The translations under genes and the position numbers were made by a program. Shown in pieces: positions 10,400-53,565 of a DNA stretch of 64,000 nt (the first letter of the stretch is position 1; every line of letters starts with the position of its first letter). The DNA comes from Haplodiscus bocki (taxonomy: Eukaryota). The stretch lies in the NCBI GenBank assembly GCA_965655095.1, contig OZ296652.1, forward strand, positions 63,240,001-63,304,000. Reading direction: 5' to 3'. Below the pieces are notes generated by a model. That model worked only from the letters and a program-made list of their open reading frames with translations. It had not been told where the DNA came from and made no database searches.

Positions 10400-13300
10400 C
10401 TGCCTTTTCCTTCTTGGTGTACTAAGGGAAGGCTTAGACTCTAATACGACAACAAAGCTGGGGTCATCGTCCAAAGACCTTTTCTGGGCGTCATGTCAGT
10501 ACTCAGAACTTCGAATTTTTGGGGCAATTTCGTGGGCTGCGCGTTAACTTCCTTTTCATTTTGTCTTGGGATCTTATTAGGCCCTACAAATCAAGAGCGA
10601 GAACACTGAGGGGTATATTTTCAACAAGTCCTTCCTCACCTAGATTAGAGATCCGTACCCCCGTCCATGCTGCTGTTTGGGCCGCAGTTTTGGGAAGTTT
10701 GGTACCATCTTTCACTAGAATCCTTCGCGGCTCAGCGGCGAAAATTAGTTTGAACCCAGCAAGCACGTAAATCAACCGTGACCTGATACGTGGATGCTGT
10801 CTTGTCATGGCACTACGGAGCATTCTCATCATTTGTGGTAAAACTGTCAGCAATGGGAACAGATTTTGAGAAAGCGGAAATACAAAAATCCGAAAAACAG
10901 TTCTTCTCTGTGGAGTGCGGCCGCATTTCGTTGTATGAAATGGCTTTCTGATCCAGATTGAATAGGAATAACTCGCCACAAGTCACTGGCCCATGGACTA
11001 GAAGTGTTGTTAACTAGAACATCTGAAGCAAAACAAGAATGAGTCAATAAAATGCAAACCTGTACCCTACATGATTGGATCCAATACAAACTGTATACAA
11101 GTGGCGCCCGGCACGAAAATCAGTCTGCGAGGAACAGTACGACAGGACGTTCTCTATGTCAGGGCGACTCCTCATTCAGGTCCGCCACAGCTGCCAGCGT
11201 TCTTGCTCGAACGACTGGAACTCGGGCCTGCAAGCTTCCATTTCACTGCCCACGATCCTCCCCTTCTCCAGAAGGCCATCCCATACCTTGCCAAAAGCTG
11301 AAGAGGAGCAAGGTCATCCCCACCGGTCAGAATCGACCGGTCGAAACAGGTCTTTCCCTGGACCACAAGAGATCGGGCAGCCCTGGTGGAAAGTCCCGCT
11401 ATCGAAATCTCTCCAAGAAAACGATGGCATCAAACCGGAAGTCGCTCTTGGAAAAATAGCTCCCAAATTTGACAAGAGGTACCATCGCCTGAGTTCTTGA
11501 GAGAATGTTTCCTCTTCAAAAGCGGTAATTTGGATGAGTAGGAGCAACAAATGCTTCCCGCTGCTCAATGTCTTCTGCAACAGACAGTTGATGAAACGAG
11601 CCAATTCACCAACCGCGTAATACCCTATTTTGATATACAGTGAGCTTGAACGAAGATATTGGCAAGAGAAACAAAAGTACACCTAGCAGACTTGGAACAA
11701 ACAAGGATATTACCTAGGATCTCGACGGCCCTTCTCATTCATATCGGAAACTATCAGAGGCTACATTCAAATAGTTTAGTCATGAAAGTAACGATATTGG
11801 GCAATGTCAACCCTTCATGACGATATGTGTACTGGGGGCAAGATGAGAGGCCAGCCAGTTCTGAATCTCAGCTCCTTTCCGTTTATCAGAGAAAAACTCC
11901 ATCATCGAGAAAGGTTGGTAACTGCCAAAAATACTTGAAGCAGTCCCATTCAAGCACCACTTCAAAAAGAGCCGGTCATAGACAGGAGACTCAACCAACT
12001 TTTGTCGGTAGTCACTACTCGAGTTGCTGTTGAACGCATTCTCAAGCACAAAAAAGCTGACTTTAAGTGCCGGAAAAGACACAATAGGCCCGATGTCATC
12101 CACAATCCCAGACGAAGCAGTAAATTTTTGATGCGGTTCACTGCTGTAGCGATCATCACTCCATCTCGCATACCAAATTTAACGCTATAGCTTCCGTGAA
12201 AGTTTGTCCAGCTTACTGCATCTGAAAGGATGCGGGGGTACATCTTGTTGAGAATAACAGAGTAAAAAACCTAACATCGATAAATTGACACATACTGCTA
12301 TGTAAAATTACGCACCTGTTGCTGCACTCACCAGAACTTCATCACGTGACCACATCCCGTCGACATCCAGCCGCCCAGCAGACAAAATAACTGCGTCCAG
12401 AATTGATAAACCAGTTCATAGCTTCAATCCAGTCGCTATACCTTGATTAACGAGGAAACTTTGGCCATCACAGCAAGATTTTCTATCAACAGCACCAGAG
12501 TTATCCCCTTTTATATCTTAGGAGAATGGGTAAACCCTGTTCCTGACAACCAAAAGAGCCCCTGAAATCCAATCGCACTGTCGCTCTAACTCCTCATCAC
12601 CAAATGTTTTGCCCTCAAAATCTAACAAGCACTAACCAGGTGTTTCCATTTTTAATCGCTGGTCACGGAAAAAGTGAGACGCCCTCAGAATGAGGCAAAA
12701 TCGCATAAGATCATGAGGACCGTATTTGAGAGCAGACACGTTTTTGCGACACACACGACGTTCAAGCTTTCTAGCTGCATCCGTTGCGCAAGTAACAAAA
12801 AAACGGCTTTTTGCGTCCGACCTCCACACCTTCTTCATCTCGTTGGTCCGCTTGGAACGAATTCAAATCTCCTTCGTGGCTGACTGGCCTCTGTCTTATA
12901 ACCGCTCGTGTCAGGTGTGCCCGTTGCTCGAGGAATAGTATGTGATGGTCCCTTCACCACACAACTCAGCACGTCATCTTTTTCTTCAAAACAACTAAAA
13001 ATACAATGAAGACGAGAGAGGCACAAACGTGGAAAACACGGAAACATTACTTAGTAGTTCTGATCGGTTCTGGGATTCGCGCTTTCTATTCAACGCAAAT
13101 GGATCGGCACAACGCAACGAGTTGATAACCAATCGTTTCGATGGGCGTTATAGCAGAGTCAGCAGCAAAATCATCCGAAGCAAAGGTTACGGAAATGAGG
13201 AACCGCCATGGATGGAAACTGAAAAGATCCTCAATTGAAACAACACATACCATCGTCGAAAGCATGCTCTAGCATTTTTTGGCTGCGTTCGTGGCATCCC

Positions 13301-14210: not shown

Positions 14211-14624
14211 TGGTAGGTTTATAAATTTATTCATCAACTTCCTAAATTTTTTCATTTTTAATAATTTGTCTGCCATTAACGACGTCAGCATATAACTTCA
14301 AAGACACGCTGAGGAGAGATACCAGAGTGTTTTTCATTTTTGGATTTCCAATCGTTAGTTTGATTACATCCTTTTACTCTCAATATGTACCTAGAATCAC
14401 TCGTTTTTATCAATTTTAGGTTTTACCGCGAGAACTTCAAACGGCTTCCCCCTGATAAAAGACCACTGACCATTCCCATAAAAATTTGGTCACTTTTTCA
14501 AGTCATTCGCTAAACTTCTGCAACTTACAGCAAAGACTCATGATTTTCATTTGCATGCTTAGAATTAATTCCTCTGACTCCATCAACAGACTCCCAGTTT
14601 TTCTATGTCAGGTGGTCGTCGAAG

Positions 14625-33500: not shown

Positions 33501-33659
33501 CCAGTATCTTACAAAAACAAAAGCGGACTTCGAACCGCCACTGTCTTAGCAGAATTTCGCCGATAAATTTTTCGCCGTTGTCCTTCAACATTAACAGCGA
33601 AAGTCTACAATTTTGGACCTCCTCAACTGGCTGGTCGAATGGATAAAAAGCGTAAATCA

Positions 33660-34570
33660 AGTTGTCGGACAATATTGCCTTCCACAAGCAATGTTTGCAG
33701 ATGATGGAAACAGGAGTCCTTATGTTTAAAATCGGAGGCTTTCAGTTCGTGGGCGCACTGTAGCCCATTTGACATGATTAACGACAAAAAAATGACCTCC
33801 GTATCACCCTAAAAGCGGCTAAACAGAACTGAAATATATGAGAAATGACATAAATTTGAAATTCGAACAGAACAATTTCGCTAAAGCACAATATAGAAAA
33901 AAGCTCAAGACATCTAGGGAGACAAAACGTGCTTGTCAAAAAGAAATATAAAGTTAACTAAAATTGTCGGACAATGTGTTCTTCCGCAGACAAAGTTTGC
34001 AGGTGATGGAAACAGGAGTCCTTGTGTATCAAATTGGAAGCTCTCAGCTCAAAGGCTCCAAATAGCCCTATTGACAGGATCCACGACAAGAACGCTTCCT
34101 CCATAGGTCCCCAAGTCTGCGGAAACAAAACGACATGCGCAATGTCGCAAGGTAGAAAAACTAAAAAACTCAATTGACAAAAAGCTGGTCCTCGAAACGA
34201 TACATTTTAAAATTAAAGTTATCGCACATTGTTTTTATCTACTAACAAAGTTTGCAGATGGTGGAAACTAGAAACGTTATGCATCAAGCTGGAGGCTTTC
34301 AACTTGTGGTTGCAAAGTCCAATCTGACACGATTCATGACAACAAAATGCCATCTACAGAAGCCTAAACCTGTTTCAAAACATAAAGATATCGAAAAATC
34401 GATATTGAAAGGTATTTGAAACAGACCTCATTTTCCAATCAGACAGCATAGAAAAAGCTCATTGAATGTAAAAAGACAAAATTGGCTTGTCAAAAGGAGA
34501 AAGCAGAAATGAAGTTGTCGAACAATTGTGATTTTCAAAAATACATTTGGAGATAATGGAACGGAGAGTC
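33660..34570. repeat. Degenerate tandem repeat, ~250-300-bp unit, ~3.3 copies
   Basis: GTTTGCAGnTGnTGGAAAC...GGAnGCTnTCA...TGACAnGAT recurs at ~33693, ~33995 and ~34250, with a partial copy at ~34545. Confidence 0.7.
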
Positions 34571-37111
34571 TGCTTGCTTTGTATCGAACTTGATTTTGTC
34601 ACTCGTTTCAGTGATTTTTGTGAAGCAAAGATTTTGGTATACGATAGCTTGCGTTTTTGAACCAAAAACACTCCCACGTCTTTTGCTTTTTTTTGTTGCG
34701 GAAATCAGGTTTCTCGATTGGGTTAGCCCTTTTCTGCGTCAGTATTAAAATATACCGGCGTTTTTTTTCAGAGGAGATCGGCGTTAACCTTCAGTGAAAA
34801 ACCTTCAAAAAAAATTTATAAGTGCCATCAGCAAAATGGCAAATGACTAAAAGACCATTGTGCATATACATGAGCTAATAAACACAACACCAAGTAGATG
34901 TTTTCAAGAAAACTGACCATTCCTAACTAACATTCACTTAAATGACAGACAACAAAGGAAAAGTTACGTTCGAAATAAAGGGAACTCAATATGAACAGAC
35001 ATCAATTTTCATGCCAAAGAGATGCAAGACGATAAGACGATAAGACGATGTTACAGATATCGAATATCATCCTTCCAAATTAAAAGCGAGGAGGCCAAAA
35101 AACTGGTGTTGCCTCAATTTCATAAACATCCATTTTCGTTATTTTCTTAAAAATTGGAGAATTAATTGGAGAGCCAAATCAACAAACTTCTATTTTCATC
35201 CAATCTAGGATTAATACGTAGAATATTTCATTGGTTGAAAAGCAACTACTTTCAATACCCATGATACACATTGAGAATGCAATAGAGAACTAAATACTCA
35301 GAAAACGGAATTCATCACTGCGAGGCGAACTTAGAACCGACTAGCTCAGACAAATAGCAACACAGAATCAGAAAAGGGGTTAATTCCGATGCCCGAAAAG
35401 TTTCGCGAACTGGCAAATGTATTAAGGATGGGTTCATTATTAAAAGTGAAATTCATTCAAGAAATCCTTTCCTTATTGTAGAAAGCTTTTTAATTGTCGA
35501 TTAGCATGAAATTCCGAAAATTCAGAAAGCAGACATACTTTTACCCCAATTCAAATTTTAGCAGCGAATTTTGCGGTAAATTTTGTTGGAACTCATGTCA
35601 GCATGATGATTTTAACCTCCAGAGGCTGACTTCCCATAAATATCAACGATTAAAAAAAACTCTTGCATCTTATCTCACCACCTGTCAGGTGACCACGCAA
35701 ATCCGCGAACAGAAAATAAACTTGACGAAAGCAGAAAGCAAATCTTAACTCACAACTTGCGCACGCACAGTGTTGCAACTCTAGGTTGAATTTTTGAACT
35801 TTGTAAACTTTTAGACAATTAGAAGGTGCAAAATCATTATGTTCAATTAAACAACTTTTCATCACTTTGTATAAGTTTTTTCTAATACGTTACACTGAGA
35901 TGAACTGTGACGTACCTTAGCAGAAAATTTAGTGATTGGACCGATATTCGAGAATACCCTAATGAAATGGTGGAGAACCTAATCGACTAGACAGAACAGA
36001 ACAAAGAGTTTGCTCCTCTAACACAAAAACATGCTGCATGCCGATTTCCAGATAATGGCACACTTAGCCTGTACCAATCAACAATCAGCAGAAACGAGGA
36101 CGTTCTTGCAGGCGTTCGCATCTAGAGTGGCAAAACAAAGTTGTTCAACACCTTTTTCTTGCGGTTCTACATCGATGACGGGAACTCCGTAAAACAGTAA
36201 ATTAGTTTGACTAAAGTGAATCTTTGTATGGTAATGATATTTGAACGATACATCTGATTGCGTGTCGCAGGCTGCCGCCTGTGACGGCATGATCTACTCC
36301 GTTAATTACAACGGGCAGAACTCAGTCATACAGGGCTACGCTCTGCCCTTAATTGAAGACTAATATAATAGAACTATCCTTTAATAAACCATTGGATAAA
36401 AACCCCCACCATTTTGAAGTTATATTCTTATACATACTTATATACTAATATATAAATATATATAAAATCTTACAAATATTTATGTACTTATGCGCAAAAT
36501 CCATACAAATATCGAAGAAGCTTGTATCATGAAGGAAAGGTCATAGACAAATGTTTACAATGCGCAACTTATCTGCAGTCTTATACTCAAATTTGATTGG
36601 TCAAAGGCAAGTAATCGTATCAACTGCTGACCAACCAAAAGCGCTGCTAGAACCTGGTCAAAATTGGTCACTGGGACCTAATTTTGACCATTTTGCTCAA
36701 AGCGAGTGGTCGTTTTCAAACAAAAGGCGAAATACGGCCAAATGAAATCAGAAAGCCAATGTATGAACAGACATAATTAAAAAATATTGCTATATACTTA
36801 TATAAACATATAATTATGTGATTATGTGATATAAAATCATTTAGTGCTAATAATTATTAAATCCTGAGTGAGAAATATCATCTGGTCAAAAGACGGTCAT
36901 AGTGCCCACTTTTGACCACTACATATTAACCTACAGTTAAAACCTGTGCAAGAAGCTTAATACCAATATTCTTGCCATATTTAGCATATTATAACTATAT
37001 TTAACCATCCATTATATGAAGCATGCATGTAAACATGATTTTAATATCCCTGAACATTTATCCAGTTTCCATGACCATATTTTTGGTGGTCATGGTTTTG
37101 CGGCATATATT

Positions 37112-37270
37112 CTTTGATGTTGTTTATATTACTATTTTTAAAACTGACGTCATGATGATGAAATATATATTCCGGGCTAAACCTCTTTAATGTTGTTTAT
37201 ATTACTATTTTTAAAACTGATGTCATGATGATGAAATACATAGTTCGGGTTGAACCCCCTTTGATGTTTA
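37112..37270. repeat. ~73-bp tandem duplication inside the LTR (also present in the 3' LTR)
   Basis: CTTTrATGTTGTTTATATTACTATTTTTAAAACTGAyGTCATGATGATGAAATA... starts at 37112 and 37185, with a partial third start at 37259. Confidence 0.9.
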
Positions 37271-37322
37271 ATATACATAGAACCCGAGGACATGACGTCA
37301 AAGAAGTGGTCCTCCCAATTGG
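37145..37322 (+). promoter_or_regulatory. Candidate LTR promoter: CRE-like TGACGTCA sites and a palindromic CCAAT box
   Basis: TGACGTCA at 37145-37152 and 37293-37300; CCAATTGG at 37315-37322, ~260 bp upstream of the gag ATG. Function is inferred. Confidence 0.45.
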
Positions 37323-38249
37323 CTGGCGAAGATGAAGGAAAAGAGACGAATCTGAAGGAGAAATCATCAGAGGAGGATATTCGATCCTGAAAAACAGTTC
37401 ACTATTGAGGAGAAGAAAAACTGCCCTCCTAAAAAACAGTCGATTAGAATACTCTTTGAAACTGACATTATTCTTTGTCCCTGTTAAAATCCTTTACAAA
37501 TTTTTAATTTGAAGTATTATTTCACTTTTGTGTCACTATTAATTTTCGCTGCTATTACAATTCAGTTATTAAAACAAACATGGTTTCTACTCGTAAGAAA
37601 AGACAGTCAAACAAAAGACTCCTCAACCAATTAGATGACTTCGATCAGGATGTGATAATTGGCAACACTGCAAGCGAGAGACAAGAAAACGTTGTGGTCA
37701 ATGAGGGTAATAATGACCAGGATTTTACCGTTGGTACTTCTAATGTTAGTTCGATTATCAATGAAAATGTGTTGAATGTGAAAACTTTAGAAAGGTGTTT
37801 TAATGAAAGAATTGATAGGGAAATGGAAAATATTGTTGAAACAGTTGAAGATAGGATACAGAGTGCAATTTTGACCGCCATCGATAACATTGTTGGTCCT
37901 AAAATTGACTTAGCGATCAGGTCAATAAATGCATCCTCTGGACGGGATGTGGCTAGTATGTCTGCAAACTCAGAACGTAGGGAGCATACGGGAATCAATG
38001 CCTCTTTTGAAAACGCATCTGAAAACAACAACACATTAGGTGTAACAAATATAAATGATGAGGCTCGACGCAACTCCCAAGACGCGGTAAGTGAATTGTC
38101 GGTCCCGGGAACACAATTTGACCGACAATCACACATTCATCACGTGGTGACAGGAGTTGAAGAACGCCACACCATGCTGGCAGGAGGTTCAGAACAGATT
38201 TATAACCCTCATCACATGATGACAAAACCTAGTAACGAGACTCATCACA

Positions 38250-38260
38250 TGGTGACAGGA
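38250..38260 (+). promoter_or_regulatory. Primer-binding site TGGTGACAGGA
   Basis: Immediately follows the 5' LTR terminal CA and is complementary to a tRNA ending ...UCCUGUCACCA. Leu-like by my recollection of acceptor stems; identity not verified. Confidence 0.85.
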
Positions 38261-39385
38261 CAAAAAGCCCAAACAAGTCAATTCCCCGAGTTTCTTACTG
38301 GGCGCATTAAAACACCACGCAACCCATCATTTCATCAATACCAGAACCTGTCAACACAAGTATCACAAGACAACAATTTACCAGTGGTCGAACAAACACC
38401 AACAAATCAAAACTTAGAAGCAAACAACTCCATTAACCGTCTAGCTGACGCAATCGCTGGAATTACCACCCAACAACGACAACAAGCAGCCACAATGCTC
38501 AAACCAGCATCCACCAATACATTAATCTTCGATGGCAAAAATGAGAAATTCGAACTCTTTGAAGACCTATTTCACACAATGCTCAAGATGCAACCAGAGA
38601 TGACAGAAGCCATGAAAATTAACCATTTTCACGCTGATTTACGCAAAGAAGCACTTCAAACATTCAGAAATATCAGTGCAGTAAACAGGAAAACTCTCGA
38701 TGACGTGCTAATTGTGTTCAGATGCAAATATGTCAAACCCGAATCAGAAGCTACAGCTAAACACAAATGGCACAAGCTCACATTCGATCTCAATACAAAA
38801 TCACTTCCTGACTTCATAGAAGAGCTCAATGAATGTGCCGAAAGAGCGTTCGGTGACAACGCCCAACACATGATTGACAGCTTACTATACGCAAAACTAC
38901 CACCCCATTCAAAACGATCACTCAACGTAGCCTATTTGGAGAATGGCACGTACGACCAAATAGTTGCACACCTTGAAAGAGAATTATAACTCAGTGGCTT
39001 AGAAAACGATGGGGAGCTGACAATACCTACAATGACAGCCGTTCCCCCAAATGATAATCAACAAAACAACGAACAAACAAAAGTGGTATGCCACTATTGT
39101 AAAAAGCCAAGCCACGTAATCCGAGAGTGCCGCAAAAGGATGAGAAAAGAACAGGAGCAAAGAAATGATCCCTCAACCCACAAGATGAAACCTTCAACAT
39201 CTAAATCATACGCACCATGTCCTCATTGTCAAAGAATAAATCAACCTAGAACAGTGTTGGAGTGGTCCCAATGCCGCTAAAAGACCCAAACGGTTCAAAC
39301 AGACATATCCAGAAGACAACCGAAATGATGGGCAAGACCAAGGAACTTTGACCCAATCAGGACCTTCATCAATCCTTAAAAACTC

Positions 39386-39392
39386 TTTAAAC
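39386..39392 (+). promoter_or_regulatory. -1 ribosomal frameshift slippery site T TTA AAC
   Basis: X XXY YYZ heptamer in the gag frame directly before the gag stop. The -1 frame is open from 39386 into the pol ORF (39527 minus 39386 is 141 nt). Confidence 0.85.
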
Positions 39393-42300
39393 TAAAAAAG
39401 CCACGACTCCAATGGGCAGATTACACATCAGTCGGACAAAATGTCATATCTGACCCACCTCCAATAGTATTTCACTCTCATCAAACACTAAACACAGGAA
39501 TTCCATCAGTTGTCTGGCAGCAACAAATGGAAAAAGCCTACATTCGAAGATATAATAACATGCATATCATTCATAAAACACTTCCAACATATGAATTTGA
39601 CTACACAGACAACTTCGACACTCACTTCAGACCCCTTCCAGAAGTCTTTGCATACGACCCATACTTCGTTGACCCTCAATATGGATTTGACCCCTCTTGG
39701 GCTGAAGAAATATATGATCAAGACAAATTGGAGTACAAAGATACTTACAATAAACCTAATGATCAGATCGAATCTGATGATTTGATTACGGATGCACATG
39801 TATCAGACGCACTACGATACGCAGTGATAGATTTATGGACAGTCAATCCACAGTTACCTGATACATCACCCTTACCAAACTTTCGACCGAGACCACAGAA
39901 CCAACAAAGGCAAATAGCAGTCATCGACGACCAAATTTTAACACAGCTCCAGGTAAAGCCAGACGGACTCACAAGGTTTCTCCTGCTCTCAACAAATTCG
40001 CCACTGAAAAATAAGCGAAAAATGCTTTACTTTCCAATGGATTTCGGGGAGTTAAAAATTGATGGCCCCATAGATACGGGTGCTTTGTCAAACGCCATTT
40101 CGGAAGCCGACTTACGCAAAATTCGATTACTGGCTCCACATACGATATTAAATGAGGGCCCACCACCTGAGTTCCAAATTATGGTTGCCAATGGACAGTT
40201 AGAAGCACCTATTGCAACAGTAGAATTGCAATTCGAAGTCGGTGACATTACGTTCAGAGAAAAGTTCATAGTTATGACAAATCTTACAAGCTCTTTGATC
40301 GGTGTCTTATTCCTACAACGCAACAGTACCATACTCGAGATGCGTCAAGGATTTCTGAACTTTCCTTTCTTTTCAATGCAATTGAAAAATGAAGACCGGA
40401 CATACCCAAATGTCATTGAACCCATAATAAACCCAGTAGACACCATTCTACAACCGAGAAAACGAACCACAATTTGGGTAAAATCACAGATTTACACAGA
40501 AAACGAAGCGACAGGAATAATTTAACCTTCGCCACTTTTGGAGACCGATGAAGATCTCCTTATTTGTCCGGCAATTTCGTCAACCCAAAATAATAAACAT
40601 ATTGTCCAAATTAGCAATTTTCTAGACCATCCTTACACTCTCATGAAAGAAACACATATGGCAAATTTCTCCACTTTGACTCCTCAACAAACAAAGCACA
40701 TTCGACCAGTCAATCCTACCTCAGTGAGACACCTCCTGAATAACAATCACGATGATGCCATCCATTACATAAATAGCCTTCTGAAAACATCGAAACCTGA
40801 CGAAGTCAATAAGACCTACTGGTTTCCAACGCCGCAAAATCCGGGCAATGAAAAGGAACATACGCCCATTCAGACACGCATTCTCAATGAATTACGAGAA
40901 CTAGAACAATTAGAAAAATTAAACCCACTGGAAAATATCGACTCCCGAAACCAATTCCTATCCAATTTCGATTGGACAGACTCTACTTTACAATCGGATG
41001 CGAAACAAGCAGTTGAAAATCTGCTCGTGGAACTTCATGACATCTTTGCACGACACCGTTTTGACATCGGAATCAATACAGAGTTCAAAGTACAACTCAC
41101 ACCATTAGACAATAGGCCTGCTTATAGCCGGAGCCTTCCAGCGCCGATAAATCTCAAAGATGATATCCTTGTGGAACTAGCTCTATTACACAAGTATGGT
41201 ATCATCACAACACTACCCTTTAGCAAATACGCTAGTCCAATATTTGCACAGAGGAAACCAGATGGGAAACTACGCCTATTAGTTGACCTTCGGAAAATAA
41301 ACACACTAATAGCAGATGATTACATAAACAACAACCATCCAGTCAGTACATTAGCGGATGCAGCACAACATATGGCTGGAAAAAATCTGTTCTGCAAACT
41401 TGATTGTCCCCAATTATACCACTGCCTCCAAATGGCCGACCAACAATCAATTGAACTCCTTGCATTCAACTTTGCAAGTAAAACATTCGCGTACCGAAGA
41501 CTGGCACAAGGACTTAGCCGTTCCCTATCGGCATTTTCGAGCTTCATACGTAAATACCTCGACCCAGTCAGCAAAGCCGATCAGTGTGCACAATATGTTG
41601 ACGATATTGGCATAGCCGCCAATACACCTGACCAATTAATCAAAAAGCTCCAGTGCCTAAGGGAAGCTGGCCTCAAACTCAGCATGACCAAATGCCATTT
41701 CGGAGTACAAGAAGTAGATTTCCTTGGACGAACAATAACAACCAAAGGGGTTGCCCCTCAAAAACAAAAGATTGCTAAATTCCTTGAAAAAGTCAGATTT
41801 CCAAGGTCCAAAGAAGCACTTCAACGATACATTGGATTCCTGAACTATTACCGAAATTACATACCTAGATTAGCAGAAGGACTCACGCCGTTCTTCCAAC
41901 TACTCAAAACAACTGATGCCAAAACCAAAAATCAGATTACCCCTGACATCATGAAAGACTTCAGGGAAATAAACGAAGCTTTAGACCGATGCTGCCAGCT
42001 AGCATTACGTCAACCATTAACTGGTAAACAATTGGTACTAATGACTGACGCAAGCTTCCAAGCAGCTGGTTACGCAGTGTTAATAGAAGACGACCCAAAC
42101 CAAAAATACACTTCAACACGCAAAACTTATGCACCTATAGCTTACGGCTCAAAAACATATTGACCATCCCAAATCAAAATGTCCATCTACGCAAAAGAAT
42201 TTTTAGCCATTTATATGGCCTTCAAAGAATTTGGACATATATGTTGGGGTGCCACTAAACCAGTGATTATCATGACAGATAGCAAATCTGTCACCAGATT

Positions 42301-44560
42301 CTTTCAAACAAAAATGATCCCTCCACCGTTATGGAATGCCTGCGACTCCGTATTACAATTCAATTTCACTATCGCAGACATTCCAGGGAAAATGAACACC
42401 GCAGCAGATTTTTTATCTCTATTGGAAATGGATCCAAATGAAAAAGTCATTCTAAAAATCAGAGAAGACATTCCAACAAAACCAATTGAAGTAAACATCG
42501 AATCTACAGGCATTGCACAAGAAGAACCGGTCTTCTTTGATCCTACAGACCCACAAGAGACCACAGAAAAAGAACTTTGGAAACGTAAGGACGGGGTACG
42601 AAACGCCATGCCCAAGGAACCACCACTCATTACAGTGTCATGTTATTACGCAAATGACCTACACAAAGACACAACAATTGTGAATATAGCACATTTGACG
42701 AAACCATCACGTATACTTATCGAACAAGATTCAGACACAACACTACTTAATTTTAAACGCGAAATGTTGGGATTACCATTCGACGAACAAATTCTATTAA
42801 ACGATGCACGCTACATGCATTATTCCAGAAACAAAAAGCGTATTATCATCAAGGATGATATTCTCTACCGACAGTACTACAACGACATTGGTGAAGTCAG
42901 TCACTTACAGGTCCTTCTGCCCGGACAATTACTTAAAGTCTTATTACAATCATTACATGGAACAGCTGGCAAACACCCAAGAATTTCAAAAATGATGCAA
43001 GAAATCCGCCAAAAGTATTACTTCCCTTCAATTGCACCTTACGTCAAAAACTGGGTTCGTGACTGTGAAATATGCATCCACGATAAACGCATAAATAACA
43101 CACGAATTACTCCAGAATTAATCCACATCCAAGAATGGGATCTCGGACCGGAAGATCTTATGCAAATTGACTTATTGCCAGAATTACCGCCAAGTGGGGG
43201 TTACGAAAACATCATTACCGCAATAGATGTATTTTCAAGATACGCATTTGCCTATCCAGTATCTTAGCCCACGGCAGTAAACACAGCCAAAGTCATCATA
43301 GACATTATGAGAAGACATGCTTATCTACCCACCCTCATTATAACAGACAAAGGAAGCGCTTTCGTCTCCCAAGTTATACATGAGCTTGCTGAAATATTGG
43401 GCATCAATTTGAAACACGCCACAACGAAACATGCACAAACTATCGGAGTCCTAGAACGAGCCCATGCCACAATCAAGACCTCTTTGAAAATGGCATCAGG
43501 CGAATACAGGAAGCAATGGCACAAATATTTACCCATTGCAATCCTGAATTACAACACGACATACCATTCCAGTATCGATTGTGAACCAAGCCGAGTATTC
43601 CACGGCAGAGTTCCACACAACATTTTAGATCACAAACTTGGATTACGATTTAATCCCAATATTGCACCCACTACAGATTTTGCGGAAGAATTACTGCGAA
43701 GAACCAAGATCCTATATGACAGAACCAAGAAAAATGTCATGCAGTCATATATCAAATACAAAAGATATTATGACAAAAAAGCAAAAGCCTCACCTTTAAA
43801 AGAAAAAGATTATTGTTTTATACTTCAGCCGAAAGCGGACCACCAAGGGTCAAAAATACCGTTCCGTGACTTCCGACGGATTGGTCCCTACATCGTAGAA
43901 AAAGAACTACCAAATAACAATTACATTGTGCGAAAACTTAACACAAACAAAACCCAAATTCTACACAGAATTCGTCTTCGAAAATACAACCCCGAAAAAC
44001 CTTCTGAAGATAATTATTCAGAAGCACAATGGCAAACCGACGACAATATTGTTGTCCCACAGGATGATTTATATACAATTGCATGGGAAGCGGAATTTGG
44101 CGGACACCTATTTGACATTCCTATCATATATACCGATCCCAACGCAATTGACTTCGATGACAGTCACACACAGGGACCTGATACAGTAATTGTCCCACGC
44201 TCCTATTATCAAGATTCAAGAGATGGTCAAAACAGGGAAACTTGCCCCATTTCTGACCCATCAGTACCGCGAACTTTAACACCTACATCGAATGGTCAAA
44301 ATCAGGACATTGAGACCAGTACTGACCTAACTCAAAATGATAACGCCAAATATGTATCTGAGTCAAGTACCGACGCTGAAATTACATGTAAACCTGTCAC
44401 ACAACCACCATCAATACAGAGTGACACTTTTCCAACACTTGACATCAACAATCCTACAGCTGAAAATACTCCCAAAAAGGAATCTAACTCTTCTAGAGGC
44501 GGGAAATACAATCTACGCCCCAATCTCAATCCTATTTACTCAGAGATATACAGATATTGA
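39386..44560 (+). pseudogene. pol: Element A pol: protease, RT, RNase H, integrase in one frame with three in-frame stops
   Basis: PR IDTGA; RT LRLLVDLR and QYVDD; RH MTDAS, AKEFLAI, MTDSK, AADFLS; IN H..GKH...CEIC, QIDL, ITDKG, VLERAH, GPY. ORF pieces 39527, 40538, 42179 and 43307 share one frame, separated by TAA 40523, TGA 42161 and TAG 43265. Confidence 0.95.
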
Positions 44561-44572
44561 CGTGTGCAAAAC

Positions 44573-44578
44573 TTTATT
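44573..44578 (-). terminator. Candidate poly(A) signal for the antisense gene
   Basis: AATAAA on the minus strand ~165 nt downstream of the antisense stop (44742) and 13 nt from the pol stop. Confidence 0.5.
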
Positions 44579-46030
44579 CTAGCCCCTTTTTGTGTGTCAT
44601 TTTTGCTCTTCATTGTTATTTTCTGCACACACATCCTTTACTTCTTTTCTTTTTACCTTTTTGGGGCATATACAAAATTACCAAGAACGACAACAAAGCC
44701 AAATTCACTCAATAGAGAAACAACAAGAAACTAATCAACAACTACAACAGCTTTAAGTAAGAGACAAGACGACTCAGTATTCGAAGTTTTGCGTTTGATC
44801 GCAACTTCCCAGCCAGCAAATCAGCCACTCCACGATGATGAGTTTTACTGATATCAAAACGTGGACGCTGTGCAGGACGACGACGTTGTTCTGGTAGTCT
44901 CTCTGAGACAAACACTGGTTCACTCAAGGATGCAGAAGACTCTACATCACTAGCAATCCTCACTGCCTTGTACGATTTCTCCAACTCAGTTCGAATTTTC
45001 TCGTACCCATGACAATCGACAAATTCCCAAGGATTGTACCACACTGAAGCGCACTATCACCAAAAGTCTCGGGCAACTCCATACACGACGAAATGGACTC
45101 CGGATCAGTGAAATAGTTTCCCTCAGCATCACTGCTCAACAGATACCCCTGTAGCGGCTCTAAAATCGCAGACAGGTCAACACTGGTCACTCCAACTTTG
45201 CTCGAGCCAAGCGAAACATCAGGCAATTTCGGGGCAACATGACCCAAACAGAGACAACTCAATTTAAATACATCCCACGTATACCCTCCACGTGACAATT
45301 CGGGGCACGATGACAGGAAAGAGACCATGTCCTCAACACATGGCCCAACACCCAACTCGTCTAGATAGACATGCCTCACATCGTCTACAAACTCTATGTA
45401 ACCGTCAATGTGCACGTTCCGCAACTCCCGTGCAACCCAACCCCGGGAACTAAAGCTCTGAAACAAGTGCTGGTAACAGTCAACAGCAACAGTCTTCGGC
45501 AATTTGAATAAGACTCCATAGTCGAAGCAAGCCAAGCCAATCACCAGGTCTGACTTGAATGTGGGGTGTTTCACTAACTCCTTAGCCACATATTTAATGT
45601 ATTGTCTGCCCTGGTCAATGAAGGGATTGAATGACTCCCCCATCACCGTCTTCGCCACAGTATCAGACCTTGCCTTCTTCCCACGCTCACGCTCCACATC
45701 GTATTTCGACTTGGCGACCTTCAACACTTTGGACCGAAGTTATGTTTTCTGCATAAATTCAGGGATGCCCACTAGCTCGCTTACAGCAAAGTCGAAAGAT
45801 CGCAACGCATCCCAATCCCATTCAGATGGCAGACAACTCCGAGACACGATTCTTCGTAGCAGACGATGCAAGAAATCGCACATTTGGCTGCACAAGAAAA
45901 ACCCTTGGTCACGACTGGGCACAAGTGACCGCTTGAAGGCCTCCCTATACTCTTGAACAATGAGTTTGAACAACTCCAGACGAGCTTCAAAATAGGGATC
46001 TCCAGTGACATGACTATCAAACGCTTGGCC

Positions 46031-46092
46031 CTACAACACAAACCAATTAAAACTTTATTACTTACATGCAATTACACGCAAACTATACCCAC
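46031..46092 (-). other. Intron 3 of antisense gene (62 nt, phase 0)
   Basis: AGG|GTGGGT...TGTGTTGTAG|GGC joins ...HVEGR to GQAFDSHVTGDPYFEARLELFKLIV, in frame with ORF 45740-45973. Confidence 0.7.
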
Positions 46093-46227
46093 CCTTCCCT
46101 CCACATGCTGAAACTCTTGACGCTGACTGGTGCTGCTGATGTACGTCACAATTTGAGGCCAATGAGCAATCATTTCCTGCACCACAAGAAACGCAGTAGA
46201 CAACTCTGATTTCCCATCTTCCAGGGC

Positions 46228-46299
46228 CTGCAAACGAACAATTATCACTCAACAAACATACTACTCAGACAATTACGGGGCACCACTACCAATACGTAC
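46228..46299 (-). other. Intron 2 of antisense gene (72 nt, phase 0)
   Basis: ATG|GTACGT...TCGTTTGCAG|GCC joins ...YFRM to ALEDGKSEL... and removes a stop. Confidence 0.75.
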
Positions 46300-46785
46300 C
46301 ATCCTGAAGTACTGTGTTGACTGCACCCAGCGTTCATCCAGAAGTCCATTCAAACGCAACAGGAGAGAACGCAGCATCGAACACATGTCAATCCTCCCCA
46401 TCACACTGAAGCTGGGTTTGTGCAACAAACGTTCAAATTGCACAGGTGTCAACGAAAATGGGTACTGAACACCCGCCTTCCGACCAGGTCTTTCATCGAG
46501 AACTTTCACAAAGTCGCCACTTGAACCGCCACAGCATATGATTGTTGCGTCACCCGAAATGGCACTCATTAATCGCGAAACAAGATCAATATAGCTTTTT
46601 GTGGGTGGAACATCTCTACCACAATGCAACATAGGCAGGCACAGGAAACGCTTGCCCTCCCAAAAACAAAGACTCAAAGTTCTGCGACGTGAATCCGCAA
46701 AAAATTCAATAGAATATGCCCCCTCACGAGCAATAACAGATGACACATGTTTCACCAGCTCCAGAAACAGATGATGCAGCAATCC

Positions 46786-46971
46786 CTGAAACATCACAAA
46801 TTACATGACACCCAACCATCAATTTCCACCCTACTCCCTCCTGTCAAATGCAAAGCTTCCCAACGACTTCTAACTCTACATGTAGTACACACCCGACAGA
46901 CTCTTGACCCATGGAAAACTACAGCACTATTACCCAGTTATAACCATAACAAAATCTGCTCAGATACGTAC
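46786..46971 (-). other. Intron 1 of antisense gene (186 nt, phase 0)
   Basis: TCT|GTACGT...TGTTTCAG|GGA joins ...SCIS to GLLHH... in frame and removes a stop. Confidence 0.8.
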
Positions 46972-49652
46972 AGAAATGCAGCTCAAACTCCAATTGAAGT
47001 CAGCGGTGCTCGCAGAATGACCCGTCAACACTCCCACCTGGGTCCAGTACTCCTCCAACGTCCACAATTGGCCTCCTCCTCGCAAAAAAATTAACAACAA
47101 CTCAATTTGAATCAGAGTCCGTGAACTTGCTGAGGTAAAAGTAAAGGGCTTCCCTTCAACAACATCATAATAAAACGGACGTTCGTGATCCAACTCAGGC
47201 ACATCCAGATGCATGAACAGCTCCTTCTCAGCTTCCAACTTGGACCCATACAGCGTACGCCCATCTGAACCACGCATCTTAGAAGGATGGTACCGGGCAC
47301 GAAATCTCTTATCTGCCGTCAAATGATGCTCCCGTTGGAAGTGGCGCTTCAGTTCATATAATCCCCGAGATCTCATGGACACGTTCCTCCTACAAAGCAT
47401 GCAGTAGAAGCAATGACGATTCTTCAACGGATTTTCTGGACCAGTAGCAAAAATTTTCGCAAACGGAGCGAGCTCCAGCATCTCCTCGGTGAAAACATAT
47501 CCACCACCATCCGACCCACTGGGTGAAATTGGGTTCGGCAGGCCTTTTCGTGACCACTTGTACAACTGACATTTTTCCCGAGCATCAGAACGAATCTGGC
47601 CAAGAGTTTTTAAGCTATCAGTATCATTAAACTCGTTCACTTCCGTTCGCAAGAAACCCAAGGCTGCATCTGCTTGTCGACTGGAACATGGTTGCTGTGA
47701 AAGATCACCCACCAAACGATCACTATCAAATGACTCCGTAATCGTTGGCAAAGAATAAAAAGATCGCGAAGCCACACTCTCCATGACAGTAGACCCTGAC
47801 CTACTGCGCGAAGCAGACTGCTCACTACCCTTCTCACCGACGTTTCTCCCAGTCTTTCCGCCAATCTTCAAAAGAACATCCTCCAACATCCCAAAAGTGG
47901 CCAAAGAAACTTCCAATCCGACGGCCTCAGCAAATTATATCATTTGATCCGAACTCATTCCGGTCACTTGCTGACGAGGATCCAATTGCACAGGAGGATT
48001 ATCAGCAAAACACTCTTTCAATAGGGTCCTTGCAGACTCACTTGGGTAATACTTCGAACGCCCAGCACCCAAACCCGGCTGCACTGTAGCTCCGGAAACA
48101 GCTGGAAGATCTGATTCTGCAACTTCAAAAACCCTCCCCCCACTCAAACTACCAACTCGTCTTCGTGCAATTGACTCCAACTCCGATGTACCATACTCCG
48201 TGTCATCCGGTCGGGAACTACTCGGGAACGACTGCCCAGCATCTGACACACCAACCATAGTATATCTATCACAAAATGATTTCCCACCCGAGTCATCAAC
48301 TTCAAATGCCACACTCTTTGAAGGCCGCTCATCTGCCACGCCAAACTCCACATCACACAATGACCGCTTGCTTCCAACACCAATCTTCTTTCCTCCCAAC
48401 TCTGCACGCAAAATCTCATCCACCTGACTCCTGGCAAAATTTGTTGTCAGCAGTTACCACACCACTCCCTGTATTAACGCGATCAACCAAATTTGAATCC
48501 AAGAATTCAAGCACTTCAGCAGGATCAACCTCCGCATTATTCTCTATTCCATCACCCCCGAGCGATTCAAGCTTATCTCGCAAAAACTTCTCCAGTCCTT
48601 CACTTCCTTCGTCACTACTCGACAATAGACACTCCTGACTGCCAGCAGCTAAACTCTCTTTATTCACATTCCCGCGTTCTTCACTTATGGTCTTTTCACC
48701 ACCTGTGACTTGCAACACTGCCAAATTTTTCGTTGGAGAAGTCTCTGTTTCCTCAATCACCACGATTTCTACTTCGCTTCTCTGGGGAAGGTCTGGGTAG
48801 TTCTCAGTTCCTTCGGTGTTGTGGTGTTTCGGCTCGTTGGATTCGTTCTCTAAACAATTGAAGCTGATAAATTTACGTGGCAACTCGCCAGCATATTCGC
48901 CCATTTCGAAACCGGATATCCGTAAAGAGGAAACACGTGTTCGTTCAAACTTAAATCTATCACGTGTTATCCTAGCAGTGAAGAGAGAAAAAGTGCTCTG
49001 GCCAAGCAATCAAATTGCCATCACTCATCAAGTAGTTCTTGATTCGACATATTCCAACATAACAAAAAGTATCAAAAAACCCAACACTCACCCATTTGTT
49101 AACAGCGACGAAACTTCTTGATTCTCTGTAGAAACCGGCTCCTCCTCCAATTGGCTCGAACACAAGTTGACAGAATTCCAAAACAAGTCCAAAACAAGCG
49201 GTACACAATCAATAAACAATTTAATCACAATTCGAAAACAAGATAATCAAATGCAATAACAATTCAAAATTAAACATTTTCAAAAGATGAGAGAGTCGTG
49301 GCTGTACAATATGGATTTTGCCACACTATGGTCATTATTGACACGATATTTACCTATCTAACATTATCTACATATTTACTATTTGGGTCAACTTCTGCCA
49401 GAGTTGCCCAACATTTGACCTTCGGAATTTCCATCTTTACATTTTCATCAAATCTTTATTCATTTTCTTTAATTCTCATTCACCCTATCACGCCTCACGC
49501 TCATTGGCTCTCACCATTACAAAAGGTGAGCTTACACTCATCAAAGTGAAGTGCCGCTTCAGCTTCACTAGCACGGTCACTTACGGTTATTGATGACCAC
49601 TTGAAATTCAAGAGTCAATACAACAATGAAATAAATCACTTAAAATCAAAAC

Positions 49653-50644
49653 ATGATTTCCTTTAACCTAACCGCATTAACCCAACCAACTCTCTCAATC
49701 CAACGAAAGTCAGAAACCCGCCATATTTTCCCCAGGAAAACCTTTCAGAATTTTACCCAACTTTCATTTACAGTTTCAATCTTCAACAAAAACAGTCGCT
49801 TCGCTTTAACACTTAGTTTCTTCAATCACGGCACTAAAGCATTTCAAGAAAAAGCCTTCGCAGATATGACCACCACATTCTGCATAGAAGAAGATGAAGA
49901 ACCCATGGCAACGGAGCCGATATACCTCTCGAGCGATGAGAGCGGATATTCAACACCCAATACAACTCCAGATCACCAGCTTGAATGCATTTATCCCGAT
50001 TCGATCACCCAGTTTATAGCCTCACAATTGGAACAACGGTCAAATATGGGCGCAGAGACCATCGTCTACCCACCAACACCAAACACGTCTACAATCTCTG
50101 ACGACGAAGACCCAATGAACCCCACTCCAATAATTGGAAACCCTGATCAATATACGCCTCAGATCCCACCCAGACGCCATCACCCAATACAACTTTGCCA
50201 ACAAGTGCAACCTATCCCAGACACGCCGCAATCTCCAACCCCGGAATATCTTGGGCAGTCAAACAATTTCTATCCCGACAATATCCCATTACACAACCCC
50301 CCAATATCGTAGCAGTAGCGGACGAATTGCGCAACCTAACATTACACCCTCATCCGCACCGTAACGGAACGGTTACAAGTTGTTTGGTATGTGGCAAATC
50401 GTACGACCAGGTGATCGAAGAGACTGTTGCCGACTACCTCGATCAGACATCACAACCGGGTGAGACAGTGCGGGAACGACAGATCAAGAGAAATGCATTC
50501 ATTGAAGGCGTTCAGAGCGGAGTCTTCATTTTATCCCCCCGGGAGTGTCGCAGGCTGCGGCCTGTGAAGGCATGATCCACTCCGTTAATTACAACGGGCA
50601 GAACTCAGTCACAGGGCTACGCTCTGCCCTTAATTGAAGACTAA
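49653..50644 (+). pseudogene. Element A ORF3: acidic/Pro-rich protein with HxH...CxxC; C-terminus encoded in the LTR
   Basis: ORFs 49653-50312 and 50195-50575 join by one extra C in a C-run at ~50300. A second 1-nt shift near 50530 leads into VSQAAACDGMIYSVNYNGQNSVIQGYALPLIED*, which is intact in the 5' LTR copy (36262-36363). Alternative start at ATG 49866. Confidence 0.65.
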
Positions 50645-52530
50645 TATAATAGAACTATCCTTTAATAAACCATTGGATAAAAACCCCCACCATTTTGAAG
50701 TTATATTCTTATACATACTTATATACTAATATATAAATATATATAAAATCTTACAAATATTTATGTACTTATGCGCAAAATCCATACAAATATCGAAGAA
50801 GCTTGTATCATGAAGGAAAGGTCATAGACAAATGTTTACAATGCGCAACTTATCTGCAGTCTTATACTCAAATTTGATTGGTCAAAGGCAAGTAATCGTA
50901 TCAACTGCTGACCAACCAAAAGCGCTGCTAGAACCTGGTCAAAATTGGTCACTGGGACCTAATTTTGACCATTTTGCTCAAAGCGAGTGGTCGTTTTCAA
51001 ACAAAAGGCGAAATACGGCCAAATGAAATCAGAAAGCCAATGTATGAACAGACATAATTAAAAAATATTGCTATATACTTATATAAACATATAATTATCT
51101 GAATATGTGATATAAAATCATTTAGTGCTAATAATTATTAAATCCTGAGTGAGAAATATCATCTGGTCAAAAGACGGTCATAGTGCCCTCTTTTGACCAC
51201 TACATATTAACCTACAGTTAAAACCTGTGCAAGAAACTTAATACCAATACTCTTGCCATATTTAGCATATTAAAACTATATTTAACCATCCATTATATGA
51301 AACACGCATGTAAACATGATTTTAATATCCCTGAACATTTATCCAGTTTCCATGACCATATTTTTGGTGGTCATGGTTTTGCGGCATATATTCTTTGATG
51401 TTGTTTATATTACTATTTTTAAAACTGACGTCATGATGATGAAATATATATTCCGGGCTAAACCTCTTTAATGTTGTTTATATTACTATTTTTAAAACTG
51501 ATGTCATGATGATGAAATACATAGTTCGGGTTGAACCCCCTTTGATGTTTAATATAAATAGAACCCGAGGACATGACGTCAAAGAAGTGGTCCTCCCAAT
51601 TGGCTGGCGAAGATGAAGGAAAAGAGACGAATCTGAAGGAGAAATCATCAGAGGAGGATATTCGATCCTGAAAAACAGTTCACTATTGAGGAGAAGAAAA
51701 ACTGCCCTCCTAAAAAACAGTCGATTATAATACTCTTTGAAACTGACATTATTCTTTGTCCCTGTTAAAATCCTTTACAAATTTTTAATTTGAAGTATTA
51801 TTTCACTTTTGTGTCACTATTAATTTTCGCTGCTATTACAATTCAGTTATTAAAACAAACATGGTTTCTACTCGTAAGAAAAGACAGTCAAACAAAAGAC
51901 TCCTCAACCAATTAGATGACTTCGATCAGGATGTGATAATTGGCAACACTGCAAGCGAGAGACAAGAAAACGTTGTGGTCAATGAGGGTAATAATGACCA
52001 GGATTTTACCGTTGGTACTTCTAATGTTAGTTCGATTATCAATGAAAATGTGTTGAATGTGAAAACTTTAGAAAGGTGTTTTAATGAAAGAATTGATAGG
52101 GAAATGGAAAATATTGTTGAAACAGTTGAAGATAGGATACAGAGTGCAATTTTGACCGCCATCGATAACATTGTTGGTCCTAAAATTGACTTAGCGATCA
52201 GGTCAATAAATGCATCCTCTGGACGGGATGTGGCTAGTATGTCTGCAAACTCAGAACGTAGGGAGCATACGGGAATCAATGCCTCTTTTGAAAACGCATC
52301 TGAAAACAACAACACATTAGGTGTAACAAATATAAATGATGAGGCTCGACGCAACTCCCAAGACGCGGTAAGTGAATTGTCGGTCCCGGGAACACAATTT
52401 GACCGACAATCACACATTCATCACGTGGTCACAGGAGTTAAAGAACGCCACACCATGCTGGCAGGAGGTTCAGAACAGATTTATAACCCTCATCACATGA
52501 TGACAAAACCTAGTAACGAGACCCATCACA
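50546..52530 (+). repeat. Element A 3' LTR (1,985 bp)
   Basis: Near-identical to 36263-38249; followed directly by the TSD TTGCG. Confidence 0.97.
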
Positions 52531-52538
52531 TTGCGTAA
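51861..52538 (+). CDS. LTR-encoded copy of the Gag N-terminus (225 aa), terminating in flanking DNA
   Basis: Identical to Gag residues 1-223 except E/K at one site; reads through the LTR end and TSD to a TAA at 52536-52538. Expression is unknown. Confidence 0.6.
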   Translation: MVSTRKKRQSNKRLLNQLDDFDQDVIIGNTASERQENVVVNEGNNDQDFTVGTSNVSSIINENVLNVKTLERCFNERIDREMENIVETVEDRIQSAILTAIDNIVGPKIDLAIRSINASSGRDVASMSANSERREHTGINASFENASENNNTLGVTNINDEARRNSQDAVSELSVPGTQFDRQSHIHHVVTGVKERHTMLAGGSEQIYNPHHMMTKPSNETHHIA

Positions 52539-52599: not shown

Positions 52600-53565
52600 T
52601 GTCGCGACACACTTGCGAAGCCTGCGGTGAACCCCTCCCTGAAGAAAAGACACCGTAAGACTCAGAATGAGACTGAAGTTTTCAAATTATTTTAAAAACA
52701 CTTATCTTAATTCGCGTTCAAATTACATGTAAATTGATCAGTATCATATAGGGATCACCGTAGTGAACTGATCCAGGCTGGGACGGAACCGTTACGGAAC
52801 AAACGGATATTCACATACCTTTCAAACATCTGCTGTTTTTATATATTTTTTCTTTAATACAAATCCACCTTCTAAGTTTAAATTGACTTGACTGGCTGTA
52901 GGAAGTGCTGAATTCCACTTTATGTACTTTATGTGCAGTTTATAAGACTAGAGCTAAATAACAGTTGTAGTTTAAACAGCTTGAAAGACTCTAGGATTGA
53001 AAATTTCTTCCGTACGTTATCCACCGTTACTAACCTGGTGATGCCACAATCATTCCGAGCACTAAGCTGTGCTGTAATGCTATACTAAAGACGGAATGAA
53101 TCGGCGTTTGCTCCTTCTTTACGCTCAGTTTGACTGACCTGACTGCCACTACTTACGAATGCGGAGATGATTCGGAGCACATTAGTTGCTACTCGCCTGA
53201 TTAAGGAGTAAACTAGTAGTGCTACTAGTTTCTCCTCATTTTTGAAGACAAATCATAATGAACTAAGTAATTTGAACGAATGTTGATTTGGACATGAAAT
53301 ACCATGGTTATTTTATTTAATTAGTATCATTTCTAATTTTCTCTAAATGTTGCCTGAATCTAGTTTAAAAATTCATTTCCCCACTTGGAGAATTATTCAA
53401 TTTTGTCCTCTAAGAATGGCCCAAAATTTTTTTGTGAATATTATGTCGGCGCGGGAATAAACACTTTGATGTCCATTTCCGACAGATTAAGTCCGTACGT
53501 TTTCTGTCATGAGATAGAGAAGACGCATCCCATGAGGGGAGAAATGGATGGAACGGTGTTTATTG
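52600..53565 (+). repeat. 3'-truncated LTR of the element B subfamily
   Basis: TGTCGCGACACACTTGCGAAGCCTGCGG... is collinear with 15124-16070 (shared GACTCAGAAT, GAACTGATC...CTGGGACGGAA, GACTCTAGGA, GCGCGGGAATAA.CACTTTGATGTCCA). Confidence 0.8.

Follow-up and report, generated by a model that had tools for sequence, protein, structure and literature searches.

The antisense gene of a Gypsy element

We examined a stretch of 64,000 nucleotides of the Haplodiscus bocki genome (assembly GCA_965655095.1, contig OZ296652.1, positions 63,240,001 to 63,304,000 of the forward strand), hereafter the window, and focused on a gene that lies antisense within a long terminal repeat (LTR) retrotransposon, here called element A. 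Element A is a Gypsy LTR retrotransposon that occupies positions 36263–52530: its LTR pair is 99.1% identical in a self-comparison of the window, the 5-bp target site duplication (TSD) TTGCG is found on both sides, and the pol domains follow the Gypsy (Ty3/Metaviridae) order of protease, reverse transcriptase (RT), RNase H and integrase (PR-RT-RH-IN), according to Pfam. A first-pass annotation of the same DNA had described a TSD-bounded Gypsy element, and all these features agree with it. The copy in the window is dead, as its pol has three in-frame stops. Between the integrase and the 3' LTR we identified a minus-strand gene of four exons and ~1,273 codons, in the place and with the exon number proposed earlier. 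The main features are the following:

36263..38249, plus strand: 5' LTR, 1,987 bp, with TG...CA ends and the TSD TTGCG before it at 36258-36262
39380..44560, plus strand: pol, with protease, RT, RNase H and integrase; three in-frame stops in the window copy
44573..44578, minus strand: candidate poly(A) signal AATAAA, just past the pol stop
44765..46030, minus strand: exon 4, 422 codons in the family; end of the core with a putative helical insertion domain like that of Hermes, then another conserved region and a basic tail
46031..46092, minus strand: intron 3, 62–83 nt across copies
46093..46227, minus strand: exon 3, 45 codons
46228..46299, minus strand: intron 2, 72 nt in the window
46300..46785, minus strand: exon 2, 162 codons; RNase H-like core, with Gly at the second catalytic position
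46786..46971, minus strand: intron 1, 186 nt in the window
46972..48904, minus strand: exon 1, ~644 codons; contains the acidic N-terminus, a zinc finger of BED-like type near 47410-47320, and a stretch that aligns to the Hermes dimerisation domain
48905..49640, no strand assigned: non-coding stretch between the antisense gene and a further frame (orfX, see below); candidate internal, perhaps bidirectional, promoter
50546..52530, plus strand: 3' LTR, with the TSD TTGCG after it at 52531-52535

The motifs quoted in the first-pass annotation were all present in the translation. Its span for the gene, 44742..48904, was right at the start of the gene and wrong at the end, since the frame of the family stops near 44765. 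The poly(A) signal it had suggested corresponds to the AATAAA ending at 44578, which was found in four out of six displayed copies (ATTAAA in one copy and neither in the other). The predicted protein is acidic at its N-terminus (32 Asp/Glu and 12 Lys/Arg in the first 149 residues), and basic clusters were present at the C-terminus in three families.

Copies were compared in a sample picked by RT alone, namely the 20 RT matches that rank highest below the window itself, out of 80 listed from 20,547 candidates; such a sample favours close and well-kept copies. The three introns are all in phase 0 and GT-AG in the window. In the 20 RT-picked copies plus the window, the donors of introns 1, 2 and 3 were GT in 20, 21 and 21 out of 21, and the acceptors AG in 21, 20 and 21 out of 21, respectively; one first acceptor sits in a deletion and was not countable. 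Between the subfamily of the window and its sister subfamily, the introns were 74–78% and the exons 84–91% identical. This conservation of the splice sites suggests that the gene is spliced. None of the 15 joints listed (of 409, from four runs of contigs of unknown kind) matched the predicted introns, which says nothing on expression.

In one subfamily (loci L031, L033 and L034) introns 2 and 3 are in frame and without stops, so that prokaryote-style gene callers read through them (predicted proteins P0003–P0005). We considered these introns as coding sequence and rejected that reading, because in other subfamilies they contain stops, their divergence exceeds that of the exons, their splice dinucleotides are kept, and they can be 62 nt long in copies whose exon 4 is open. 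Intron retention could nevertheless give a longer isoform in that subfamily. In the divergent family D, as read by eye, intron 1 is found at the same position; intron 2 is absent and the frame reads across that point.

The ~740 bp before the ATG were 74–75% identical between subfamilies, and the introns of those same subfamilies 43–54%; the stretch 48905-49640 is thus the most likely promoter of the antisense gene, as far as can be judged from the sequence. Upstream of the ATG on the minus strand, a strong donor-like site at 49091 and a pyrimidine-rich acceptor at ~48972 delimit a possible 5' leader intron; the pair is kept in most copies of the subfamilies of the window and not in two divergent ones.

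The claim that the minus strand encodes a protein held for the family and failed for the copy in the window, which cannot make the protein: its frame is broken by three frameshifts, near 48440, 45040 and 44790, and by two stops, at 47935-47937 and 45740-45742. Among the RT-picked copies, exon 4 was open for at least 422 codons in 17 out of 20, and exon 1 formed a single frame of at least 660 codons in 13 out of 20.

Occurrence of the gene in the Gypsy lineage

The presence of the antisense gene is fixed in this Gypsy lineage. All 20 copies picked by RT alone carried it; the first-pass annotation had considered the case of most copies lacking the gene, and this was not what we found, with the sample bias described above. 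A second set comprised 80 gene-picked loci, 60 of them picked by the antisense gene and 20 by DNA likeness to the 3' region of a second, divergent element of the window (element B). Of the former, 59 adjoin an integrase end on the opposite strand (one being the window itself), and the 60th lies in an internally deleted Gypsy. All 20 element-B-related loci carried the gene, 19 of them opposite to pol; one locus (L083) was collinear with a family-D element over 6.3 kb and continued into other Gypsy sequence in the reverse direction. None of the 80 gene-picked loci had the gene outside a Gypsy element. Two internally deleted loci (L059:1-1900 and L085:99-3178) have lost most of pol and kept the antisense gene, as non-autonomous derivatives. 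A first look at the genome gave 2,677 candidates for exon 4 and 5,866 for exon 1, totals that are not copy numbers.

The homolog that had been reported for element B was found in the same place:

~7650-9600, plus strand: element B pol
11011..13014, minus strand: degenerate homolog of the antisense gene (E 1e-65), between pol and the 3' LTR-like repeat
~15500-16760: element B 3' LTR-like repeat

This homolog was missed by a direct tblastx comparison of elements A and B and by narrow profiles. The family that includes element B is only ~20–25% identical. The gene keeps its position across families that share 57–84% identity in RT and 18–28% in the accessory protein, and families A and D were linked by hhalign (E 1.6e-18). 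A profile search recovered 1,336 cluster representatives at E ≤ 0.001, mostly fragments. Two divergent representatives had no match above 29–31% in the host genome and probably come from other genomes. Relatives of the accessory protein in metagenomes were limited to two short contigs without context, and none was found in viral contigs. No long named homolog was recovered: one homolog search gave three unnamed proteins and another gave none, and none of 12 cluster members had a name.

We also looked for remains of transposon ends. The longest inverted match between the flanks of the gene was 8–10 nt in six copies and 8–13 nt in their shuffled versions (eight each). The gene therefore shows no terminal inverted repeats (TIRs) above the level of the shuffles, in line with the first-pass annotation, which had seen neither a TIR nor an 8-bp TSD around it, and the 80 loci gave no case of the gene independent of the retrotransposon.

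Selection and module exchange

The ratio of nonsynonymous to synonymous divergence (dN/dS) was estimated by the Nei-Gojobori method between the subfamily of the window and its sister, in three pairs that share one reference copy and are thus not independent. The values were 0.07–0.09 for the finger region, 0.11–0.12 for exon 2, 0.09–0.10 for the core in exon 4, 0.33–0.37 for the acidic N-terminus and 0.05–0.08 for RT. Synonymous divergence (dS) was 0.33–0.71 for the parts of the accessory gene versus 0.44–0.45 for RT. Very close pairs gave noisy dN/dS values of up to 1.5, with few changes. The antisense gene is under purifying selection, which answers the dN/dS comparison across copies suggested by the first-pass annotation, and it almost certainly encodes a selected accessory protein.

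Two copies had an RT dS of 0.35–0.55 to the reference together with a saturated dS in the antisense gene. The integrase tree groups these two copies otherwise than the accessory tree (FastTree, 18 copies, low support inside the family). Both the mismatch in dS and the disagreement between trees indicate that recombination has exchanged the 3' module. Families A and D are deeply separated, with a support of 1.0 in both trees and a branch of 0.52 substitutions per site for integrase versus 2.17 for the accessory region. This divergence, ~4 times that of integrase, and the module swapping would both fit a role in host conflict.

Similarity to hAT transposases

The first-pass annotation had linked the protein to hAT transposases, and the link was recovered in structure and not in sequence profiles. 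Two structure models were built from alignments that contained no hAT sequences. The C-half model was that of P0003, a relative that is 58–61% identical to the window and covers exons 2–4 (687 residues), and the N-half model that of a 401-residue family-D piece from the finger to the core. With the C-half, Hermes ranked first among 48,161 chains in the VIA comparison (Z 6.5, root mean square deviation (rmsd) 4.7, 179 aligned residues), with residues 275–550 on Hermes 338–578; two of the other rows align 136 and 184 residues at an rmsd near 20, and the rest 63–112 residues. In a second look, Hermes chains took ranks 1–3. With the N-half, the top ten Foldseek rows were all Hermes (best E 5.1e-4, probability 0.97), although the TM-scores are only 0.2, as the relative placement of the domains differs. 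In the VIA comparison, one Hermes chain aligned with residues 103–303 of the N-half over Hermes 91–262, from the dimerisation domain onward (Z 5.3, rmsd 5.8, 141 aligned). The RNase H-like core is supported by the strand-helix order in the two models and by the RNase H-like folds that fill the VIA list, and a Hermes-type helical insertion inside this core was matched structurally with moderate strength.

The finger in front of these domains keeps its ligands (first Cys in 75 out of 76 sequences; His in 75 out of 78 and 70 out of 79) and aligns weakly with the BED finger of the hAT frames of the host genome (E 0.013). A Pfam search of the finger did not match zf-BED, and zf-C2H2_12 appeared only at E 0.01–0.03; the ESM Atlas leads for the finger were zf-BED and zf-C2H2_12 clusters with scores of 0.83–0.86, under the bar of 0.9. 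Helical-repeat leads, all below 0.9, were the only ones that the ESM Atlas gave for P0003.

The catalytic residues of Hermes are D180, D248 and E572, according to the available part of PMC2533014. At the position of D248, on strand 4, the accessory protein has a Gly-Gly, with Gly in 82 out of 85 and 61 out of 85 sequences at two surrounding columns. After the last conserved helix, there was no column of Asp/Glu (at 75% of 18 diverse sequences) until residue 288, ~25 residues further on. The C-terminal dimerisation region that the first-pass annotation had named is not recognised by PF05699, and the motif of the catalytic Glu is lost there. The Asp-Asp-Glu (DDE) triad appears to be incomplete under either register of strand 1, and a catalytically dead hAT transposase is our best reading of the protein from sequence and models.

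Several results weigh against this reading. None of the 118 and 111 members of two family sets matched the hAT Pfam models, into which the quoted motifs do not fit either, and neither did a further set of 17 proteins. A sequence search of PDB with the accessory protein did not find Hermes, and a hidden Markov model of the family did not match 20 frames from the hAT loci of the host genome; the best profile-profile score (29.7) was within the range of shuffled controls (28.4). The models themselves are middling, with a mean local confidence (pLDDT) of 66 each and predicted template modelling scores (pTM) of 0.51 and 0.40, and they derive from relatives with intron-coded peptides left in (two in P0003). 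Foldseek with the C-half model found nothing in PDB or BFVD. The VIA scores (Z 5–6.5) are below the bar of 8 of that tool, and the core of the N-half showed there a generic RNase H-like fold, with Hermes at rank 39 and tied with integrases and the Mutator-type ISCth4. Finally, a Glu on strand 1 is conserved in 69 out of 85 sequences, at the first catalytic position or two residues before it: it aligns with the first Asp of integrases if the VIA ranges are taken as ungapped, and lies two residues before by the hAT motif. One carboxylate may thus remain, the registers having been read by eye from motifs and range ends. An interferon-gamma match in the PDB sequence search (E 0.004) was taken as chance.

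Halves modelled from families that are ~20% identical nevertheless match collinear parts of Hermes, with a BED-like finger in front, and this makes a hAT origin of the accessory protein very probable, while the strength with which structure places it with hAT is moderate. The host genome also holds ordinary hAT families with open transposase frames of 591–641 codons (L118–L124), some of them in many copies of identical score; none was detectably related in sequence to the accessory gene.

Possible origin and function

We propose that a hAT DNA transposon once inserted into an ancestor of this Gypsy lineage, in antisense orientation and between pol and the 3' LTR, as the structure and the position of the gene suggest. 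The transposon ends would have been lost and the transposase gene retained as a third gene of the retrotransposon. Since the genomic RNA is the other strand, the introns of an antisense gene are not removed from that RNA by splicing. Those of the accessory gene would thus survive reverse transcription, and the gene would need its own promoter, most likely within 48905-49640. Of the ancestral transposase, a BED-like finger and a dimerisation-like region would remain, as would the RNase H-like core with its helical insertion; the DDE chemistry would have been lost, and new parts would have been added, a long acidic one at the N-terminus and a basic tail at the other end. Its most likely place of action would be the nucleus, where an oligomer of the protein would bind the DNA of the element itself and so raise the transcription of the element or shield it from host silencing. 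Activation or anti-silencing by self-binding is the likeliest job in view of the acidic N-terminus, the basic tail, the absence of catalysis, the fast divergence and the exchange of the module.

The first-pass proposal that a class II transposase gene was domesticated by a class I element is supported by these results. A dead hAT transposase serving as the DNA-binding accessory factor of a retrotransposon is, overall, the explanation that we favour, with somewhat better than balanced confidence; that its job is self-regulation or anti-silencing we hold to be about evenly poised. The fullest form of the proposal is more tentative, with the balance tilting slightly against it: that an old, multi-species animal Gypsy lineage turned a hAT transposase into a sequence-specific, trans-acting counter-silencing or activating factor, encoded by an antisense gene with introns and swapped between subfamilies as a module in the manner of retroviral env.

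Given the same hAT origin, the protein could instead work at integration, binding cDNA ends or target chromatin and tethering or escorting the integrase complex, as a factor for targeting or nuclear import. Selection on the whole scaffold, beyond the finger, would suit a structural, DNA-holding protein, as would the basic tail, and PMC10368747 describes, for Hermes, BED domains that bind subterminal repeats and an oligomeric assembly of the enzyme on the transposon ends. However, the gene swaps between lineages with near-identical integrase cores, which argues against a tight co-evolution, and the acidic N-terminus fits transcriptional activation better. We regard an integration role as unlikely, though it is the main rival of the reading that we favour.

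The donor could also have been a DDE transposase of a different kind that likewise has a helical insertion, from Mutator, P, Kolobok or a superfamily without a solved structure; Hermes would then come first only because so few of these structures have been solved. This would account for the RNase H part, where ISCth4 (Z 5.2–5.7) is tied with Hermes (5.0–5.7), for the absence of a sequence link to hAT, and for the CxxH and RW motifs, visible in the hAT frames of the host genome and not in the accessory protein. Nevertheless, Hermes was the sole transposase that the C-half matched within the 50 rows listed, the Foldseek value of the N-half for Hermes (5e-4) was far ahead of that for Mos1 (0.043), and the BED-like finger and the order of finger, dimerisation region, core and insertion are collinear with Hermes. 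A donor outside hAT is therefore improbable.

Dead transposases can act as repressors, and the protein might then restrain the element in a form of copy-number control; alternatively, the chief product might be the antisense RNA, with the protein in second place. Silencing by double-stranded RNA can draw on antisense transcripts of LTR elements, and both roles can coexist, according to the available part of PMC7264820. Codon-level selection over ~1,270 codons implies, however, that the protein matters, and the family is very abundant, as the first-look candidates indicate; we give little credence to restraint or to a leading part for the RNA.

Nested insertions are common and the structural scores are modest, but a nested or still active hAT transposon copied along with a successful retrotransposon is largely refuted, and together with chance structural resemblance very improbable, by the absence of TIRs and of any free copy in the 80 loci, the same position across families, the missing catalytic residues and a dN/dS near 0.1.

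Comparison with known systems

The hAT transposases represented by Hermes (PDB 4D1Q, 8EDG and 2BW3) have the domain order in common with the accessory protein and were its best structural match in both halves. The accessory gene differs from Hermes in having neither TIRs nor an 8-bp TSD, in the Gly at the second Asp and the absent Glu motif, in moving by retrotransposition, and in showing no detectable sequence similarity; its protein is twice as long, with ~490 residues more at the N-terminus and an additional region at the C-terminus. The BED domains of Hermes bind short repeats inside the transposon ends (PMC10368747, available part).

The closest parallel in position is found in plants, where Gypsy elements of the Retand, Grande and RIRE2 groups carry extra open reading frames (ORFs) that are likewise antisense, between pol and the 3' LTR, and present in most copies (PMC11963269, available part). 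In Grande, gene23 possesses an upstream promoter of its own, and its product is nuclear (PMC7264820). In the available parts of PMC11963269 and PMC7264820, these antisense ORFs are described as limited to plants, of unknown origin and without similarity to other transposable elements (TEs), and TRP28 as being without a known function. Unlike them, the gene described here has an animal host, as the Wnt genes of the genome show, and it has introns and a donor class that can be named, and no member of our family sets (118 and 111 proteins) matched TRP28 (PF04195).

ZBED1/DREF, ZBED4 and ZBED6 are likewise hAT transposases reused as probable regulatory DNA-binding proteins. They are single host loci that keep the DDE triad (PMC3606216, available part), whereas the recruiter of the accessory gene was apparently a different mobile element; this gene is present in thousands of copies and seems to have lost the triad at least partly. 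VANC of VANDAL, the env captures of errantiviruses and the retroviral antisense gene HBZ are likewise captured, faster-evolving genes that serve the element; these derive from host or viral genes, and none from a class II transposase, in the available parts of PMC13547354, PMC12440569 and PMC11963269. The same kind of partial sources report chromodomains and viral envelopes as extra genes of LTR elements (PMC12440569), host-like domains as TE extras (PMC13547354) and an antisense accessory gene in a DNA transposon (PMC12477816). We found no literature precedent for an LTR element with an accessory gene derived from a DDE transposase, Repbase Reports and most subscription journals being outside the coverage of this search. 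Antisense extra ORFs are thus already known in plants, and it is the hAT-transposase origin that would be new and surprising to a specialist.

Transposase domestication is known as something that hosts do. Here, a retrotransposon appears to have domesticated a transposase, and the product of this event counts as one of the most amplified sequences in a genome of 1.5 Gb. How antisense extra genes arise in LTR elements has been considered unknown, and the insertion of other TEs unsupported (PMC7264820). Our case supports the TE-insertion route for antisense genes and suggests that this route can hide below sequence detection, so that other orphan 3' ORFs deserve a structural re-examination. It also provides a candidate retrotransposon-encoded regulator or anti-silencing protein in animals.

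Other features of element A and the window

Two further plus-strand frames lie in element A:

37508..38989, plus strand: gag frame; DUF1759 at E 9e-4, below the cut-off
49644..50312, plus strand: orfX, the other extra frame besides the antisense gene and placed head-to-head with it

The gag frame opens ~740 bp inside the 5' LTR (first ATG at 37580) and crosses the primer-binding site at ~38250; as it starts within the LTR, ~220 gag codons are duplicated in the 3' LTR (51789-52538). Each LTR contains a 73-bp tandem repeat (37111-37300 and 51392-51580), and the palindrome TGACGTCA, which we take to be CRE-like, was found in the LTR ahead of the gag ATG, at 37145 and 37293. These 73-bp repeats are a candidate binding region for the accessory protein or for host bZIP factors. 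Directly before the 3' LTR (50530-50545), there is a run of C followed by GGGAG and not a plain polypurine tract.

The dN/dS of orfX was 0.13–0.36 in divergent pairs, and its Pfam search gave no match. It swaps independently of the antisense gene, as two copies with a dS near zero in that gene differ at a dS of ~3 in orfX. Frames of similar size were found in the same place in element B (14544-15194) and in family D.

Directly past the 3' TSD of element A, positions 52600-53564 were ~75% identical to the LTR region of element B; element A may thus have inserted into or beside an older relative. The window also contains 200 N at 5223-5422 and, upstream of element A at 33643-34349, three diverged repeat copies that are ~255–300 bp apart.

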